From NCBI GenBank assembly GCA_963715775.1, contig OY970274.1, positions 263,043-327,042 on the forward strand: a stretch of DNA of 64,000 bases, read 5' to 3'. Of the stretch, positions 39,715-48,193 are shown piece after piece. Numbering within the stretch: position 1 is the stretch's first letter; every line of letters starts with the position of its first letter. Position numbers and translations under genes: made by a program. The notes beneath the pieces are model-generated. The model searched no databases, was not told the origin of the DNA, and saw nothing but the letters and a program-made list of their open reading frames with translations. This DNA is from an uncultured Solirubrobacterales bacterium. GTDB taxonomy: Bacteria > Actinomycetota > Thermoleophilia > Solirubrobacterales > Solirubrobacteraceae.

Positions 39715-41541
39715 CTAAACCGTGTGCTCGAGCGCCCGCTCCTGAGCGCGGTCGAACTCACGCTTGACCTCACCGCGACTCCGCGCCAGCTCGCTGACCT
39801 CGCCACTTTCCTGCCCCCGCGCCTGCTGGATGCGACGGTCCACCCGCGCGAGCTCCAGTTGCAGCCGCTGAACGTCGAGCATCGCCGGTTGCGCCGGTTC
39901 GCGGCCGGCTTCCACGACCAGCTCGGCCAGCAGCGCCTTCAAATGAGGATCACCGTCCAATCCGTCCTCCAGATCGGCCGGGTCGGTCATCGGATCGCGC
40001 AGGTGCCCGGCGCCGAGATGTTTCGCGGCGCGCTGCAGCAGCCCGCTGGTGAAGTGCTCGTCCACGTCGAGGCTCGCCAGCGCCTGCTCTCCCTCCTCCG
40101 GTGAGGCGATGCAGAGCGCGAGGAACGTGCGCTCGGTCTCTTCGCGGCGAGACAGCCCGTTGGCAATCACGGAAGGGGCCGAGACGTTACGAGGTATCGC
40201 CGGTCCTTCGCTACCCTCGCTTGTGAGCCGCTGTTGGCGGGTCTGAGGCGCCAGCAGCGTCTCCATCAGGCTCTCGGGCAGTGCCAGGCGTCCGGAGACG
40301 AGCCTCGTCAGCTCCAACCGCATCGTGCTGGGCGGGAGCATCGCGAATATTGGGCGCAGCTCATCGACCATCCGGTCGCGACCCTCTGGGCTGCCGTGGT
40401 CGCCGGTCGCGAGCACTCGCTCGACGCGGAAGCGCACGAACGGGACGGCCTGCTCGACCGCCGTGTTGATCGCCTGCGCTCCGTCGCGCTGCACCAGGTC
40501 GGCCGGATCGGTCCCGGGAGGCAGCGCCACCACGCGCAGCTCGAGCTTGCGCTTCGCCGCGAGCCCCGCGGCCTTCAACATTGCCTCCTGGCCGGCGCTG
40601 TCGGCGTCCAGCGCCAGCAGCACCGTCTGCGCCATCCGCGCGAGCTCGCCCACCTGCTCGGCCGTCAACGCGGTGCCCATCGACCCGACCGTGTTGCGCA
40701 AGCCTGCCTGGTGCAAAGCGATCACGTCGGTGTAGCCCTCGCACAGGATCGCCTGCCCGGCGCGCGCCGCGTGTGCGCGCGCGAGGTCTGAGCCGTACAG
40801 GTGCAGACCCTTGTGGTAGACGTCGTTGTCGGAGGTGTTCAGGTACTTCGGTTTCTGTTCATCGCGCATCGCGCGTGCGCCGAAGCCGAGCACGCGGCCG
40901 CGCACGTCTGCGAGCGGGAACATGATCCGTCCGCGAAAGCGATCGTAGAGGCGGCCGTTCTCCTTCGAGCGCTGCGCCAGTCCCGTCGCGTACAGCTCCT
41001 GCTCGGTAAAGCCGCCTCTGCGCGAGGCAAGTAGCACTCGATCCCAGGCGCTCGGGGAGTAGCCGACATGAAATTCGCGCAGGATCTCCTCGCCAAGACC
41101 GCGGCTCTCGAGATATTCGCGCGCCGCCTTCGCCTCATCGGCTTCCCACAGGCAGCGTTCGTAGTAGGCCGCCGTGCGGGTGAGCAGCTCCAGCAGCCGC
41201 TCGCGCCGGCGGCGGCGCTCGGCCGCGCGCGGATCCTCCTCCTCGCGCTCGAGCTCGACGCCAAACCGGTCCGCCAGCAGCTCGATCGCGCCTTTGAAGT
41301 CGACCCCCTCGGTCTCCTGCACGAACGTGAACACGTCGCCCGCGGCCTGGCAGCCGAAGCAGTAGTAGACCTTCTTGTGCGGGTCGATCCCGAACGAAGG
41401 GCTGCGCTCCTCGTGGAACGGACACAGGCCCTCATACCGCGCCGGCCCAGCCCGGCGCAGCTCCGTGCGCGCCGAGACCAGCTCGACGAAGTCGACCGCG
41501 TCGCGCACGCGATCCTTGGACTCACGGGTGTAGAAGGCCAC
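39715..41541 (-). CDS. dnaG: DNA primase
   Basis: CPFH.E..PSF, CFGC, FRGRIMFP, KYLNT, EGY.DV, LALDADSAG. Confidence 0.97.
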   Translation of the reverse strand: MAFYTRESKDRVRDAVDFVELVSARTELRRAGPARYEGLCPFHEERSPSFGIDPHKKVYYCFGCQAAGDVFTFVQETEGVDFKGAIELLADRFGVELEREEEDPRAAERRRRRERLLELLTRTAAYYERCLWEADEAKAAREYLESRGLGEEILREFHVGYSPSAWDRVLLASRRGGFTEQELYATGLAQRSKENGRLYDRFRGRIMFPLADVRGRVLGFGARAMRDEQKPKYLNTSDNDVYHKGLHLYGSDLARAHAARAGQAILCEGYTDVIALHQAGLRNTVGSMGTALTAEQVGELARMAQTVLLALDADSAGQEAMLKAAGLAAKRKLELRVVALPPGTDPADLVQRDGAQAINTAVEQAVPFVRFRVERVLATGDHGSPEGRDRMVDELRPIFAMLPPSTMRLELTRLVSGRLALPESLMETLLAPQTRQQRLTSEGSEGPAIPRNVSAPSVIANGLSRREETERTFLALCIASPEEGEQALASLDVDEHFTSGLLQRAAKHLGAGHLRDPMTDPADLEDGLDGDPHLKALLAELVVEAGREPAQPAMLDVQRLQLELARVDRRIQQARGQESGEVSELARSRGEVKREFDRAQERALEHTV

Positions 41542-41552
41542 TGCGTCCTACG

Positions 41553-42605
41553 CTACAGCGCGAATGCTTTCGGCACCTCGAGGTCGGTGTACGCGTTGAT
41601 GCAATACCGATCCGTCATCCCTGCGAGGTAGTCCGTCACGCGCCTGGCCAGATCGTCCTCGCCGCCGCCGTCGCCGTCGCCGTCCGCCGGTGGCAGTTGC
41701 TCGGGTCGATCGACGTAATGCTCGAACAGGGTTCGCACGACCCCCGCAATCCGTGCGTGCTCGGCGCGCACGGCTGGACCGAGATAGACGCGCTCGAACA
41801 TGAAGTCCCGCAGCTCGCGCATCGCCGTCCCGGCCTGCTGGCCCTGGACGATGTCTCCGGTGCGCTCGGAATGCTCCACCATGTCGTGCACGAGCGCGTC
41901 GATCCGGGTTGAGCCGCTGCTCCCCAGCACGGCGATCGGCTGCTCCGGCAGCTCATCCTCGCTCAGCAGGCCCGCGCGGACCGCGTCGTCGATGTCGTGG
42001 TTGATGTAAGCAACGCGGTCCATCACCCTCACGATCCGGCCCTCGAGCGTCTGTGGCAGCGGCGCGCGGGTGGAATGGCCCGCGATCCCGTCGCGCACCT
42101 GCTGGGTCAGGTTCAAGCCCGCACCGTCGCGCTCGAGGCTCTCGACCACCCGCAGCGAGTGCTCGTAATGGCGGAAGCCAGTCCCGAAGCGCTCTTTGAG
42201 GCAACTGTCCAGAACCTCCTCGCCGATGTGGCCGAACGGCGGGTGTCCGAGGTCGTGGCCGAGGCCGATCGCCTCCGTCAGGTCCTCGTTCAGGCGCAGC
42301 GCTCGCGCGACCGTGCGCGAGATCGTCGTCACCTCGAGCGTGTGCGTCAAGCGTGTGCGGTAGTGGTCGCCCTGGGGGGCGACGAACACCTGTGTCTTGT
42401 GCTTCAGCCGTCTGAACGCCTTGCAGTGCACGATCCGGTCGCGGTCACGCTGAAACGGGGTGCGCAACGCGCAGTCGTCCTCGGCGCGGGCGCGGAGTGC
42501 CGGGTAGGAGCGGGCGGCAAGCGGAGAGAGCGTGCGCTCCTCCAGCTCACGCTGGCGCTCGGCGAAGGCGTTCGCGACCGTGTCTGTCGGCTTGGCGAGA
42601 CTCAT
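41553..42605 (-). CDS. dgt: Deoxyguanosinetriphosphate triphosphohydrolase (dGTPase)
   Basis: FQRDRDRIVH.KAFRRLKHKTQVF, RTRLTHTLEV, HDLGHPPFGH, YLAGMTDRY. Confidence 0.95.
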   Translation of the reverse strand: MSLAKPTDTVANAFAERQRELEERTLSPLAARSYPALRARAEDDCALRTPFQRDRDRIVHCKAFRRLKHKTQVFVAPQGDHYRTRLTHTLEVTTISRTVARALRLNEDLTEAIGLGHDLGHPPFGHIGEEVLDSCLKERFGTGFRHYEHSLRVVESLERDGAGLNLTQQVRDGIAGHSTRAPLPQTLEGRIVRVMDRVAYINHDIDDAVRAGLLSEDELPEQPIAVLGSSGSTRIDALVHDMVEHSERTGDIVQGQQAGTAMRELRDFMFERVYLGPAVRAEHARIAGVVRTLFEHYVDRPEQLPPADGDGDGGGEDDLARRVTDYLAGMTDRYCINAYTDLEVPKAFAL

Positions 42606-42696
42606 CGCTCGATTGTGGCAGCGGGCTCGGCGAGTCCGGGCTTGCGCGCGCGAATGATCGCGATCGTTTCGCGATGCTCGATCGCGGGAGGAGCGC

Positions 42697-43053
42697 TCAG
42701 CGCTCGTGATGCCAGTCGTTGCGGCCGGTGTACTTCCGCACCAGGTGGCTCCACTTGGTTTGCGTCGCTGGATCCTCGTCGAACACCGGCGCTTTGTGCT
42801 CCGGCTCAGGTAGATTCGAGGCGGCAGCCGAATCGATCCGTAGATCGACACCGCGTTCATGAAGCGATGCGATCGCATCTGCCTCGAGGAAGCGAAGGCC
42901 GTGGCTTGGGGTGTTGATCAGCAGCCCGTGGAACACGTCCTCCTCGGGGGCGCTCAGCACGCTTCCGACGGTCCCGACCTGCTCACCGTCGGAGGCGAGC
43001 ACGGGCACGCCGGTTTCCAGCACCTGGTAGGCGATTGGGGATCCCTCGTCCAC
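42697..43053 (-). CDS. Small hypothetical protein, PRC-barrel-like
   Basis: G.PV.ASDGE.VG.V..V pattern; fills the recO-dgt gap. Confidence 0.55.
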   Translation of the reverse strand: MDEGSPIAYQVLETGVPVLASDGEQVGTVGSVLSAPEEDVFHGLLINTPSHGLRFLEADAIASLHERGVDLRIDSAAASNLPEPEHKAPVFDEDPATQTKWSHLVRKYTGRNDWHHER

Positions 43054-43099
43054 GGCCCACCACGATATCGGGATCGGCGCGCGGGCCGGGCGCGCCGGG

Positions 43100-43936
43100 T
43101 CAGCCCGTGCGAGCCGCGGCCGGCATCAGCCGCAGGTGCGCGTGGTGCTCGAGCGTCTCCGCGATCGCGCGCTCGACCTGCCCGAGCGCCGGCGCGGGCC
43201 CCCCGGGGATCTCCGTCAGCGGGCGGCCGAGGGCCGCGGTCATGAACTCGTACGCGGCCTCGTCCAGCGGGAACGACGCCGCCTCGCACGCGCCGCACAC
43301 CACGCCGCCGGCGGATCCGGAGAAGCCGACGAGGTGCTCGCGCTCGCCGCAGCAGGCGCACGCGCCGAGCTGGGGCGCCAGGCCGGCCGCGAGCAGCAGC
43401 TTCAGGCGGAATGCGAGCGAGCCGGCGCGGCCGCTCGTAGGGCTGCCGGTCGGCGTAGAGCTGCCGGTCGGCGCCTCGCCCGAGCTTTCCTCGGTGCTAG
43501 ATGGTTGCGCGGTGGGCAAATCCGGCCCGGCGGCCCGATTCATCCCAGTGCTCTGCTCGTCCAGCAAAGCAAGGTGCCGGCACAGCAGGTTGAACACGCC
43601 CGGGTGCGGCTCGCCGGTCTCGAACAGGCGGCCGACCGCGTCGCAGGCGCGCGCGGCGCTGTCCAGCGCGCGCGCGTCGCCGCGCAGGCGTGGATAGGCG
43701 TCGACCGTCTGCGCACCCGTCACCGTCAACAGCTCGCCGCGACCCTCGTGCAGGTCCAGTCGCAGGCGAAAGAACGGCTCCAGGCGACCTCCGAAGCGGC
43801 TGCGGGTGCGCCGGACGCCCTTCGCGATCGCGCTGATCCTGCCGCGGTGGGGGGTGTAGAGGTGGAGGATGCGGTCGGCCTCGCCGTAGCGCATCGATCT
43901 CAGCACCACCGCCTCGGTCTTGACTGGGCCTGCCAT
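43100..43936 (-). CDS. recO: DNA repair protein RecO
   Basis: TEAVVLR...YGEADRI, AKGVRR..SRFGG.LEPF, C..CG..G.VC..C; internal low-complexity insertion. Confidence 0.93.
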   Translation of the reverse strand: MAGPVKTEAVVLRSMRYGEADRILHLYTPHRGRISAIAKGVRRTRSRFGGRLEPFFRLRLDLHEGRGELLTVTGAQTVDAYPRLRGDARALDSAARACDAVGRLFETGEPHPGVFNLLCRHLALLDEQSTGMNRAAGPDLPTAQPSSTEESSGEAPTGSSTPTGSPTSGRAGSLAFRLKLLLAAGLAPQLGACACCGEREHLVGFSGSAGGVVCGACEAASFPLDEAAYEFMTAALGRPLTEIPGGPAPALGQVERAIAETLEHHAHLRLMPAAARTG

Positions 43937-43988
43937 CGGACCGTCGAGTCTAGGCTCGCGGGCGGCGGGCATTTGCGCCATCGTCACA

Positions 43989-44021
43989 AAATTGGCACAG
44001 AATCTGCTGGAAATTGGCACA
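43989..44021. repeat. 11-bp direct repeat with 22-bp period between divergent recO and HNH starts
   Basis: AAATTGGCACA at 43989-43999 and 44011-44021. Confidence 0.8.
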
Positions 44022-44054
44022 TTCTCGGCCGCGAGAGCTGAGACAATAGGATGC

Positions 44055-44768
44055 ATGGATCGCGCTTCTTTGGAGCAGCTGTTGGGGCAGGGGTTGTCGC
44101 TGGCCGAGATCGGCCGGCGGTTTGGGTTGCACGAATCGACCGTTGGCTACTGGGTCGAGAAACATGGGTTGCGGGCGGCCAACCGCGACAAGCATGTGGC
44201 CCGCGGCGGTCTTGCCCGGGAGGATTTGGAATCGCTGATCGAACGAGGCATGTCGATCGCCCAGATTGCGGAGGCAGTCGAGTGCAGCAAGGGGACCGTA
44301 CGCCACTGGCTCCGGCAATATGGTCTGAAAACCCAGGCGCAACGATGGATCGGCGAGGAATCGACGCGCGCGATGAGAGGGGCCGGGAAGGCGACGGTCA
44401 TGCGGGAGTGCCGCAAGCATGGCGTCACCGAGTTTTGGCTCGAGGGTCGTGGCTATTACCGCTGCAAGCGCTGCCGTTTGGAGCGCGTGAGTCGACGCAG
44501 ACGAAAGGTTAAGCAGATCCTGGTAGCCGAGGCCGGTGGATGTTGCGCACTGTGTGGCTACGACCGTTGCGTTGCGGCGCTTCACTTCCATCACCTCGAT
44601 CCCAGCAGCAAGCAGTTTCATCTGAGCATGCACGGCGCCGCTCGCTCGATCGCCTCCGCGCGTGCCGAGATGGCGAAGTGCGTGCTGCTGTGCGCCAACT
44701 GCCACGCAGAGGTTGAGTCGGGGCTCGCGACTCTCGAGACGGATGCAATCCGAAGCGGGCTTGCGTAG
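44055..44768 (+). CDS. HNH endonuclease with two HTH domains and a zinc finger
   Basis: Two IA..(G/C).....V..W....GL HTH repeats; CRKH..YRCKRC; CALCGY..LHFHHLDP..K..KCVLLCANCH. Confidence 0.85.
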   Translation: MDRASLEQLLGQGLSLAEIGRRFGLHESTVGYWVEKHGLRAANRDKHVARGGLAREDLESLIERGMSIAQIAEAVECSKGTVRHWLRQYGLKTQAQRWIGEESTRAMRGAGKATVMRECRKHGVTEFWLEGRGYYRCKRCRLERVSRRRRKVKQILVAEAGGCCALCGYDRCVAALHFHHLDPSSKQFHLSMHGAARSIASARAEMAKCVLLCANCHAEVESGLATLETDAIRSGLA

Positions 44769-44783
44769 AATCTCTGCCTGCGG

Positions 44784-44856
44784 TCCTCGGCAGCTCGATT
44801 GGCCGAGCGCTCGACTGTTAATCGAGAGGTTGTGGGTTCGAGCCCCACCCGGGGAG
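44784..44856 (+). tRNA. tRNA-Asn (GTT) with non-canonical C8, G14, C21; CCA not encoded
   Basis: Acceptor TCCTCGG/CCGGGGA, D stem GCTC/GAGC, anticodon stem CTCGA/TCGAG with CTGTTAA loop, T arm GTGGG-TTCGAGC-CCCAC. Confidence 0.93.
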
Positions 44857-44892
44857 CTGTTTGAAGTCGCTTGGAAGTCCGTCGCGTCCAGC

Positions 44893-46152
44893 CTAAGCCC
44901 GGGCGTGACGGACTCTGAGCGGCGTTCGGCCCCTAACTGACTCTGTTGGTTCGCGCATAGCCAGTTCCTCCACCAGCCCCGCCGCGGCGTCCCCGGCATC
45001 GTGTGAGTCGCCCCACGCCGCTAGCTCCCGCGCCCGCGCCCGAATCGAAGGCTCCTCGAGCGCCCGTTCGACCGCCAGCCGTAGCGGCCGCGGCGAGATG
45101 AACCGCTGCGGTACCCGCACCCCCGCACCGGCCCAGTCAACCCGCGCGGCATTCTCGTTCATGTCGCCGATCGCCGGGCAGGCGACCACGGCGCATCCCG
45201 AGGAGAGCGCGCGTACGAGCGTGCCGTGCCCGGCGTGGCAGACGACGACGTCGCAGCTGGGCATCGTGCGCGCGTAGGAGACCCAGTCGACGATCCTCGC
45301 GTTCGCCGGCACGGGCAGTGGGCGAGGCGGAAGGCGGCGGTTCCAGGTCGCGAGCACTCGCACGGGCGCGTCGGCCAGTCCGCGCAGGGCGGCATGCAGC
45401 ATCCGGTGCGTCGGGTCCTGTGCCGTCGAGGGCGCGACGAGCACGAGCGGCTCGTCACCCGGCGGGAGCTCGACGTCGGCGGCCGGGGGCTCCCACATCA
45501 GCGGGCCGACCACGTGCGCGTGCTCCGGCCACACGCGCGGGTACTCGAGCTGGGGAAACGTCGCGACGAGCGCAAGCTGGCGGCTGGTGCCGCCGTGGGT
45601 ATGGTCCAGGGGCGGCAGGTCTACGCGCGCGCGGGTGTCGTTCAGCTGGGCGCGGCCGAGCTGCAGGCCGTGCTCTAGCGGTCGGCCGGCACGACGCCAG
45701 AATGCGCGGCCGGCTGCCGTCCGCGGCAATCGCGCGCCGAGCGAGTAGATCGGCAGGCCGGGCTCGCCCTCCGGGAAGACGTGGGGGATCAGCGTCGCTT
45801 GGGGGACGCCCTCGAGCTCGGCCGCGAGGGCGGGGGCGAGCGTGAGGATGTCGGCGACGACGACGTCGGGTTCGAGCTCGGCGACCAGAGGAAGGGTGTC
45901 GCGCGTGGCGTGGACGACCGCCTCGTAGAAGTCAAGCGGCTCCGGTCCCGTCGGGAAGACGTGGTACTCCGGCGCGGGGGAGAAGGACAGGCCCTCGGCC
46001 TCGATCGGCGCGCGCCAGCGCTCCCACGTCTGCACCGTCACCTCGTGCCCGCGCGCGGCGAGTGCCTTGCCGAGGGCGATGATCGGGAAGGCGTGTCCGG
46101 GATCGCCGAAGGCGCCCAGCAGCACCCGCAACGTTGGCCTCACTGGCGACAC
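44893..46152 (-). CDS. GT1 family glycosyltransferase (MGT/UGT-like)
   Basis: GD.GH.FP..ALG..L.ARGHEV, DWVSY...VVCHAGHGT. Confidence 0.88.
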   Translation of the reverse strand: MSPVRPTLRVLLGAFGDPGHAFPIIALGKALAARGHEVTVQTWERWRAPIEAEGLSFSPAPEYHVFPTGPEPLDFYEAVVHATRDTLPLVAELEPDVVVADILTLAPALAAELEGVPQATLIPHVFPEGEPGLPIYSLGARLPRTAAGRAFWRRAGRPLEHGLQLGRAQLNDTRARVDLPPLDHTHGGTSRQLALVATFPQLEYPRVWPEHAHVVGPLMWEPPAADVELPPGDEPLVLVAPSTAQDPTHRMLHAALRGLADAPVRVLATWNRRLPPRPLPVPANARIVDWVSYARTMPSCDVVVCHAGHGTLVRALSSGCAVVACPAIGDMNENAARVDWAGAGVRVPQRFISPRPLRLAVERALEEPSIRARARELAAWGDSHDAGDAAAGLVEELAMREPTESVRGRTPLRVRHARA

Positions 46153-48119: not shown

Positions 48120-48193
48120 GGGCCTGTAGCTCAGCTGGTTAGAGCAGCGGACTCATAATCCGTCGGTCCCTGGTTCGAGTCCAGGCAGGCCCA
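48120..48193 (+). tRNA. tRNA with CAT anticodon, most likely tRNA-Ile2 (lysidine)
   Basis: Cloverleaf GGGCCTG/CAGGCCC, loop CTCATAA; G1-C72 excludes initiator; C4-G69 and C5-G68 are TilS determinants. Confidence 0.92.

Follow-up and report, generated by a model that had tools for sequence, protein, structure and literature searches.

The 64,000-nt window analysed here, positions 263,043 to 327,042 of contig OY970274.1 from an uncultured Solirubrobacterales bacterium (assembly GCA_963715775.1), carries an intact gene for an HNH endonuclease with two helix-turn-helix (HTH) modules immediately upstream of a tRNA-Asn gene. From the comparison of sequences across the order, we consider it probable, at about 60%, that this is a free-standing chromosomal HNH homing endonuclease that forms a mobile cassette with tRNA-Asn at the site between dnaG and a glycosyltransferase gene in Solirubrobacterales. 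This reading is favoured because the gene occupies a fixed site in single copy, is patchily distributed and prone to decay, is under purifying selection, is replaced together with the tRNA within a bounded tract, and is linked to the diversification of that tRNA. Much is known about free-standing homing endonucleases from phages and organelles; to our knowledge, clear cases in bacterial chromosomes are rare. A preliminary description made from the window sequence had already proposed a homing element. Its tRNA linkage and non-vertical history are borne out by the present analysis, whereas its native recO site and its mobile unit consisting of the nuclease gene alone are not. The genome that contains the window (G000) is a single contig of 3.2 Mb with 68% G+C and 48 tRNAs; other G and L labels denote related genomes and loci used in the comparisons. 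The nuclease gene and its tRNA comprise the following features (HTH module 2 is given with its ratio of nonsynonymous to synonymous substitution rates, dN/dS).

44055..44768, + strand: HTH-HTH-zinc ribbon-HNH endonuclease gene (protein P0001), an intact open reading frame (ORF) of 237 amino acids, single-copy in the genome
44058..44159, + strand: HTH module 1, residues 2-35 (Pfam; sister-lineage comparison)
44217..44330, + strand: HTH module 2, residues 55-92, the most variable domain (Pfam; dN/dS ~0.26)
44394..44474, + strand: three-stranded zinc ribbon, residues 114-140, with invariant C119, H122, C137 and C140 (alignment, model)
44535..44720, + strand: HNH (beta-beta-alpha-metal) nuclease core (PHROG, alignment, model, Foldseek)
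44784..44857, + strand: tRNA-Asn(GTT), the sole copy in the genome (ARAGORN; Rfam tRNA model, 53.7 bits)

The domain order HTH-HTH-Zn-HNH, which had been read from the translation alone, is supported by Pfam, PHROG, the invariant residues and the structural model together. Pfam matched HTH_38 to residues 2-35 and HTH_23 to residues 62-89, and two PHROG families of HNH endonucleases matched residues 83-227 with E values of 2e-30 and 7e-24 (a third matched at 8e-18). In an alignment of 45 homologues, the ribbon residues (C-x2-H...C-x2-C) as well as C164-x2-C167, H179, H180, C213-x2-C216 and H217 of the HNH core are invariant, and N215 is kept in at least 90%. These sequence motifs include the catalytic His, the structural Asn, the metal-binding His and the two CxxC pairs of the HNH superfamily. 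The AlphaFold2 (AF2) model, with a predicted local distance difference test score of 79, consists of three-helix bundles, a three-stranded ribbon and a beta-beta-alpha unit. When this model was searched against BFVD with Foldseek, 41 matches were obtained at E <= 1e-3, nearly all of which are phage HNH endonucleases, and the top match, from Yersinia phage fHe-Yen9-04, is full-length. The Pfam HNH models did not match P0001, even when its C-terminal half was searched alone; a sequence search of the PDB returned tandem-HTH proteins only, and the Foldseek search of the PDB was weak (Cap5 HNH and Gme HNH as the best matches, E ~0.07-1). The HNH assignment therefore rests on the PHROG matches, the motifs and the BFVD matches. 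Pairwise dN/dS of the gene is ~0.17, indicating purifying selection, with values of 0.15 for the HNH domain, 0.17 for HTH module 1, 0.22 for the ribbon and 0.26 for HTH module 2; between the window copy and its nearest relatives it is ~0.10-0.12.

The linkage of the gene to tRNA-Asn, which the preliminary description had set as a check on itself, was without exception in the sample, consisting of 20 loci from 40 relatives and 80 loci kept of 429 matches in a species-representative genome collection. In all 20 loci from the relatives, the match lies directly upstream of tRNA-Asn on the same strand, frameshifted copies and remnants of 30-40 codons included, and in all 80 loci from the collection, the gene or its remnant is likewise immediately 5' of tRNA-Asn on the same strand. 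Thus, approximately 100 of 100 loci are located between dnaG (or its inverted substitute) and tRNA-Asn, with no intron or intein involved, which is the fixed site expected of a free-standing homing gene. In the window, the gap between the nuclease stop codon and tRNA-Asn is 15 nt (44769-44783), exactly as first described and as placed by both ARAGORN and the Rfam tRNA model; across loci, the stop codon ranges from 61 nt before the tRNA to a few tens of nucleotides inside it. No integrase, transposase or other recombinase was found within +/-5 kb of the nuclease gene, which also agrees with the preliminary description.

The gene is present in 179 of 401 sampled genomes of the order (~45%, E <= 1e-10) and in 143 of the 312 high-quality genomes among those of the order. 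Approximately half of the genomes carry it in each of three large families, compared with 2 of 18 and 0 of 15 in two others. Copies are single per genome in the 401 genomes, and many matches are shortened or have internal stops. Outside the order, only 5 of 400 genomes from across the phylum matched, by the HNH domain alone and at ~40% identity, and these fragments were never found at tRNA-Asn. Inside the order, a short HNH-domain remnant at L155 (G054:C4:141152-144355), which covers residues 157-225 at 54% identity, is separated by 13 nt from a divergently oriented tRNA-Lys(TTT) and possibly represents a second tRNA-associated relative.

On a tree of five flanking proteins from 21 genomes of the genus, the presence and absence of the nuclease switches at least five times. 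For example, the empty genome G003 is sister to G023, which has an intact copy (support 100/100), and the two differ by 801 nt with the HNH gene versus a spacer of 19-24 nt, set inside flanks that are 85-90% identical. That the empty genomes, which have identical tRNAs, might simply form one clade was ruled out by their scatter on this tree. Clean empty sites exist beside occupied, broken and remnant loci: nonsense copies are present at L053, L075 and L112, frameshifted copies at L088, G004 and G024, and short remnants at G013 and G034. The frameshift calls are the weakest of this evidence for decay, because many of the metagenome-assembled genomes (MAGs) are nanopore assemblies. Polymorphism among close relatives accompanied by degenerate copies corresponds to the invasion, decay and loss that characterize homing genes. 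In the bin G016, contigs C189 and C88 (L010 and L024) contain an intact HNH allele and a ~245-nt remnant, respectively, with nearly identical tRNA-Asn genes and dnaG parts that are 92% identical, reflecting either strain-level polymorphism or contamination of the bin.

The history of the nuclease gene differs from that of its surroundings. A concatenated tree of DnaG and the glycosyltransferase from 66 loci disagrees repeatedly with the HNH tree. The flanks group the window with L051, L052 and L064 (support 100), with L072 as sister, whereas in the HNH tree G000, L051 and L052 join L054-L062 (support 98) and L064 joins L072, L067 and L087 (support 97). In approximately unbiased (AU) tests, the HNH data reject five clades supported by the flanks, with p = 1.8e-5, 0.0015, 0.0029, 0.029 and 0.037. 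Pairwise identities of the two flanks correlate well with each other (Spearman 0.89), compared with 0.63-0.69 between HNH and either flank.

Sliding comparisons between sister lineages delimit the replaced segment. In the window, which was compared with L064, it corresponds to the following feature.

44140..44960, + strand: laterally replaced tract, consisting of the HNH gene without its 5' end, the tRNA and ~100 nt downstream (35-75% nucleotide identity to the otherwise 86-95% identical L064)

Identity to L064 is 88-97% in recO and 85-92% in the spacer and the first ~90 nt of HNH; beyond this 5' end it is 70-75% and then 47-60% over the remaining HNH, before reaching ~87% in the tRNA and ~86% in the glycosyltransferase gene. 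In four other sister pairs, the divergent tract opens 70-130 nt inside HNH, spans the tRNA and closes 120-250 nt downstream, with flanks ~90% identical around it. Sister lineages that differ in the rest of HNH remain ~90% identical over its initial ~100 nt, so that this 5' end appears to act as the left recombination junction. As judged from these identities, the exchanged unit is HNH together with tRNA-Asn, since the divergent tract is bounded around both; the view of the nuclease gene alone as the mobile unit must be given up, because the exchanged tract takes in the tRNA as well. Horizontal transmission is thus indicated by the AU tests, by the sliding identity and by the way in which the tRNA type follows the HNH tree (see below). 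Simple vertical conservation, which the preliminary description had named as an outcome that would speak against it, is not what was found: the gene is patchy and decaying, its tree conflicts with those of both flanks, and the exchanged tract bears a tRNA.

The tRNA-Asn genes themselves vary with the nuclease. Relative to its relatives, the window tRNA-Asn has C8, G14 and C21 and swapped acceptor pairs 4:69 and 5:68 (U4:G69 and C5:G68), so that the altered 5' half noted previously is real. It scores 53.7 bits, compared with 71.6-71.7 bits for the canonical allele of HNH-free relatives; all variant tRNA-Asn sequences still score as tRNAs, at 53.7-67 bits. The C8/G14/C21 allele must be functional, because the window genome holds no other tRNA-Asn. 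Each tRNA-Asn sequence type matches an HNH clade: the window clade has C8 and the D-arm changes A14 to G and A21 to C, and in many of its members the acceptor pairs are swapped as well; in a large clade, the 3' strand of the D-stem is longer by one or two nucleotides; and other types have GGCGC or AACTC D-stems. Mapped onto the trees, the tRNA types need 15 changes with HNH and 25 with the flanks. The most variable parts of the tRNA are position 8, the D-arm, position 26 and the anticodon stem, and the T-arm hardly varies.

The syntenic tRNA-Met gene, located ~3.3 kb away in the same 21 genomes, served as the control. Pairs of occupied genomes differ at 12.3 positions in tRNA-Asn versus 5.6 in tRNA-Met, whereas pairs of empty genomes differ at a median of 2 positions in tRNA-Asn versus 4 in tRNA-Met. 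In the six HNH-free genomes, which are scattered on the flank tree, tRNA-Asn differs at 0-2 positions and tRNA-Met at 0-8. The divergence of tRNA-Asn within the genus was also considered as an anomaly in itself and was discarded as such; because the tRNA-Met baseline is substantial, only the excess in tRNA-Asn and its dependence on HNH count. The window tRNA-Met (48120-48193) is unlike that of all 20 relatives of the genus at pair 6:67 (GGGCCT...AGGCCC versus GGGCCC...GGGCCC). Elsewhere in G000 (C1:1879073-1879168), ARAGORN called a 96-nt tRNA-like sequence with the four-base anticodon ggag and no amino acid; this could be an unusual tRNA or a spurious prediction.

In many loci outside the window clade, the 15-30 nt preceding the tRNA are a partial copy of the 5' end of tRNA-Asn, and the HNH ORF in these loci often ends at a TAG that matches tRNA positions 8-10. 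Across 109 loci, the 45 nt upstream contain 42 matches to a 14-mer of tRNA positions 2-15 (allowing up to 3 mismatches), versus 1.0 expected; downstream of the tRNA, such a match is present in only 5 loci, versus 1.6 expected. Examples of the upstream copy are L064:3725-3741, L072, L107:3687-3715, G007 and ~40 other loci, all outside the window; in G007, G008, G023 and L066, a similar 14-mer lies ~20 nt downstream of the tRNA. A search downstream of the tRNA for 3' fragments of tRNA-Asn, the trace left by integrases, found none. The duplicate may have been left behind as a scar when breaks at the tRNA 5' end were repaired, or it may serve such repair as a substrate.

The arrangement of the locus in the window departs from that of the relatives, where the gene order is dgt, dnaG, the HNH gene (if present), tRNA-Asn and, on the opposite strand, the glycosyltransferase gene. 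The neighbours of the nuclease gene are dnaG, dgt, recO and genes for the glycosyltransferase, a luciferase-like monooxygenase, an SDR protein and PPK2, and the following two features lie upstream of it.

39715..43985 (approximate), - strand: inverted block dnaG-dgt-small ORF-recO (gene order compared with relatives)
43937..44054, no strand assigned: divergent spacer between the probable recO start and the HNH ATG

Comparison with L088, in which an HNH gene of the window type accompanies a dnaG block in normal orientation, places the right breakpoint of the inversion ~70 nt upstream of the HNH ATG. The inversion is common to the window and L051, L052, L053 and L064, is not found in L088, and nearly all relatives are uninverted; inverted repeats were looked for at its ends and none of note were found. 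Therefore, recO, which had been regarded as the native neighbour, is a secondary one: relatives have the nuclease gene between dnaG and tRNA-Asn, and recO came to adjoin it by inversion of the recO..dgt..dnaG block in the window lineage. In its long form, the recO ORF reaches 2 nt into the HNH ATG, but the true recO start is probably M41 (an ATG on the - strand at 43936-43934), because the RecO_N domain begins at residue 44 of the long ORF and identity to L064 falls upstream of M41, and the resulting divergent spacer before the HNH ATG is therefore 118 nt long.

Two kinds of conserved signals accompany the cassette. One precedes the tRNA and the other the nuclease gene, and the former is represented in the window as follows.

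44766..44771, + strand: TAGAAT, a -10-like hexamer that includes the HNH stop codon TAG (44766-44768), 12 nt upstream of the mature 5' end of the tRNA

This is the stop codon and hexamer arrangement that had been pointed out in the preliminary description. Of 87 distinct HNH-containing loci, 43 have the motif TA[GC]AAT in the 60 nt preceding the tRNA, at -17/-18 or ~-42; the remaining 530 kb of these loci contain it a single time. TAGAAT is found at -17/-18 throughout the clade of the G000 type and TA[GC]AAT at ~-42 in other clades; where HNH is absent, the short spacer before the tRNA contains TAAAGT or TACAGT. The hexamer is conserved and is no chance occurrence, and it is plausibly the tRNA promoter carried by the cassette. 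A strict sigma-70 scan of 43850-44950 found no full -35/-10 promoter. Upstream of the nuclease gene, GACAAT (44042-44047) lies 7 nt before the ATG, and GACAAT-N7-ATG is kept in most loci, as expected of a putative -10 element for a leaderless HNH mRNA.

In most loci, a palindrome (C/G)GAAC-N4-GTTCG is located at ~-46 to -50 from the ATG. Of 86 distinct loci, 52 have a perfect GAAC-N4-GTTC no more than 200 nt from the ATG, and the remaining 512 kb of these loci contain none. The LexA consensus in Streptomyces venezuelae is tCGAAC-N4-GNNCGa (PMC9380542); the box fits this consensus and is thus a predicted LexA operator. In G000, the LexA-box motif is found upstream of lexA and of one recA. Three full-length RecA-family matches of 412-437 bits are present in this genome (C1:26078-26863, 422446-423231 and 1469599-1470384), among which only the gene at 422-423 kb has an upstream LexA box. 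The spacer in the window holds a conserved block, GTCAC..GGCACAGAAT (43983-44003), and two copies of the direct repeat AAATTGGCACA (43989-43999 and 44011-44021) at the place where other lineages have the LexA box; the AAATTGGCACA repeat may be an operator for another regulator or for the HTH modules of the protein itself.

The homing reading can be put as a series of steps. The two HTH modules and the zinc ribbon would direct the HNH domain to the tRNA-Asn of alleles that are cassette-free or of another type, with tRNA positions ~8-43 or the 5' flank as the likely target. The break would fall in an essential single-copy gene, and RecA-dependent repair from cassette-bearing homologous DNA would copy in the nuclease gene and the linked tRNA allele, with crossovers on one side in the conserved initial ~100 nt of the HNH gene or in the HNH promoter, and on the other at the 3' end of the glycosyltransferase gene. 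The resident tRNA would escape cutting through structurally compensated changes, such as C8/G14/C21 for U8/A14/A21, the swapped acceptor pairs and the D-stem insertions. The LexA box would tie expression in most lineages to the SOS response, when recombination is active (the window subclade would have lost the box), and the cassette would bring its own -10-like element for the tRNA. A more far-reaching version, which we put forward tentatively and at somewhat less than even odds, is that the cassette acts as an allele-specific gene drive on an essential single-copy tRNA: each nuclease type would be paired with a tRNA-Asn allele that it cannot cut, the types would compete at one site under SOS control, and the arms race would remodel the near-universal core of a tRNA that stays functional (U8/A14/A21 to C8/G14/C21, bulged D-stems and swapped acceptor pairs).

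The closest parallels in behaviour come from phages. SegB is a homing nuclease that cuts within tRNA genes and favours the inheritance of itself and of flanking tRNA genes; in phage T6, the 3' end of SegB and the 5' end of the neighbouring tRNA gene are linked by microhomology that mediates recombination after cleavage (PMC13096335). The gene described here resembles SegB of T4 and T6 as a free-standing nuclease gene beside a tRNA gene and in the similarity between its 3' end and the tRNA 5' end, which takes the form of 15-30-nt copies in many loci. However, SegB belongs to the GIY-YIG enzymes, is encoded by lytic phages among many tRNA genes and has relaxed specificity, whereas the present protein combines an HNH catalytic domain with two HTH modules, and its gene is chromosomal, adjoins one single-copy essential tRNA, exists in many allelic types and mostly has a LexA box; the resemblance is therefore one of behaviour only. 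The free-standing HNH enzymes of phages (T4 MobA-E; PHROG 2255/3106) share the nuclease fold and motifs, with 35-45% identity in the nuclease domain, and MobE is known to mobilize flanking DNA (PMC2790892). In addition, gp262 of Cronobacter phage CR3 lies between tRNA-Asn and tRNA-Glu, and gp159 of Acinetobacter phage Aci05 follows tRNA-Ile. These enzymes differ in being mostly shorter (~118 aa, nuclease only) or in having one HTH, and no chromosomal series of alleles linked to a host tRNA has been reported among them.

Among actinobacterial HNH genes, the REP13E12/DUF222-HNH repeats of Mycobacterium tuberculosis, several of which are reported in the LexA regulon, are multi-copy and dispersed, have another N-terminal domain and are not known to be linked to tRNA genes; they were compared by description only. 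Integrase islands at tRNA genes share with the cassette the tRNA association and a partial tRNA duplicate. However, they use a tyrosine recombinase, insert at the tRNA 3' end and leave 3' fragments, whereas here neither a tyrosine nor a serine recombinase lies within +/-5 kb, the gene lies on the 5' side of the tRNA and it is the 5' end that is duplicated. A full-text literature search turned up phage systems, namely SegB, MobE and the Certrevirus HNH genes; it found no description of a bacterial chromosomal homing endonuclease tied to a host tRNA gene, of a dnaG/tRNA-Asn homing cassette in a chromosome, or of comparable homing nucleases under SOS control.

Several points weigh against a homing cassette. 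Homing in a bacterial chromosome requires DNA uptake or conjugation. The strong purifying selection and the persistence across the order would be explained equally well by a benefit to the host. The LexA box is absent upstream of the window gene and in its subclade (G000, L051-53, L064 and L088), and the canonical D-arm is retained in the HNH-containing loci L079, L127, L096, L114 and G023, so that a change in the tRNA is no universal requirement for carriage. The clades used in the AU tests were chosen after the trees had been seen. Finally, most of the genomes are MAGs, although complete long-read chromosomes are available for the key cases L064, L072 and L054.

The main rival explanation, which we nevertheless consider unlikely, is that the gene is a domesticated homing nuclease, that is, an SOS-inducible nuclease or regulator that benefits the host, exchanged by ordinary recombination at a hypervariable spot, its link to the tRNA being historical. 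The LexA box in most lineages, a dN/dS of ~0.17 that is low in all domains, and the single copy at a constant site throughout the order would all be natural for such a gene. A beneficial gene would not readily be missing from ~55% of the genomes, including sisters of carriers, or decay so frequently, and ordinary recombination does not account well for a sharply bounded tract within flanks that agree with each other and not with HNH (Spearman 0.89 versus 0.63-0.69). In particular, domestication leaves unexplained why tRNA-Asn diversifies only when HNH is present.

The pairing of nuclease type and tRNA allele could also arise if the protein were an enzyme of self/non-self exclusion that cuts incoming DNA with foreign tRNA-Asn alleles, from phages or other strains, the resident allele serving as the 'self' mark. 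The existence of phage relatives within tRNA arrays is consistent with such a role, and SOS control would suit a response to incoming DNA. We regard this second alternative as having a small chance of being correct, because PADLOC gave no meaningful match to a defence system, no partner genes are present, and the cassette itself moves between lineages, which fits drive better than defence. Exclusion and homing share the same enzymology, and both may be true together.

A third explanation places the cause of tRNA-Asn diversity elsewhere, in tRNA-targeting toxins or anticodon nucleases, with the nuclease gene promoting or hitchhiking on the replacement of alleles. The compensated changes in the D-arm and anticodon stem are compatible with this, and a phage homing nuclease is known that can serve tRNA-based counter-defence (PMC13096335). 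However, general toxin pressure would also affect HNH-free loci, which keep one canonical tRNA-Asn despite differences in tRNA-Met, and no toxin candidate was seen in the locus; this explanation is therefore improbable. The notion of a transposase or insertion sequence, or of a remnant of an integrase-borne island, suggested by HTH modules that resemble transposase N-termini and by the label 'transposase' that the Joint Genome Institute gives to homologues, is effectively refuted in domain, copy number, repeats and position, as NCBIfam transposase models reach only 22-32 bits against cut-offs of 74-224 and match the HTH only, there is no DDE or recombinase domain, no nearby integrase and no terminal repeat, one copy occurs per genome, and the gene lies 5' of the tRNA instead of at its 3' end.

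The family provides a natural series of dozens of nuclease types with matching tRNA-Asn alleles, together with empty sites and decayed copies in close relatives. This series makes it possible to test how homing genes persist in cellular genomes, whether the SOS response couples their spread to DNA uptake and recombination, and how much change the conserved core of an essential tRNA tolerates when the pressure acts on its DNA. Sequence-specific nucleases with readable target changes might also be obtained from the allelic HTH-HTH-Zn-HNH proteins. If the more tentative gene-drive version holds, selfish DNA would be driving the evolution of a tRNA sequence in a whole order of soil bacteria.

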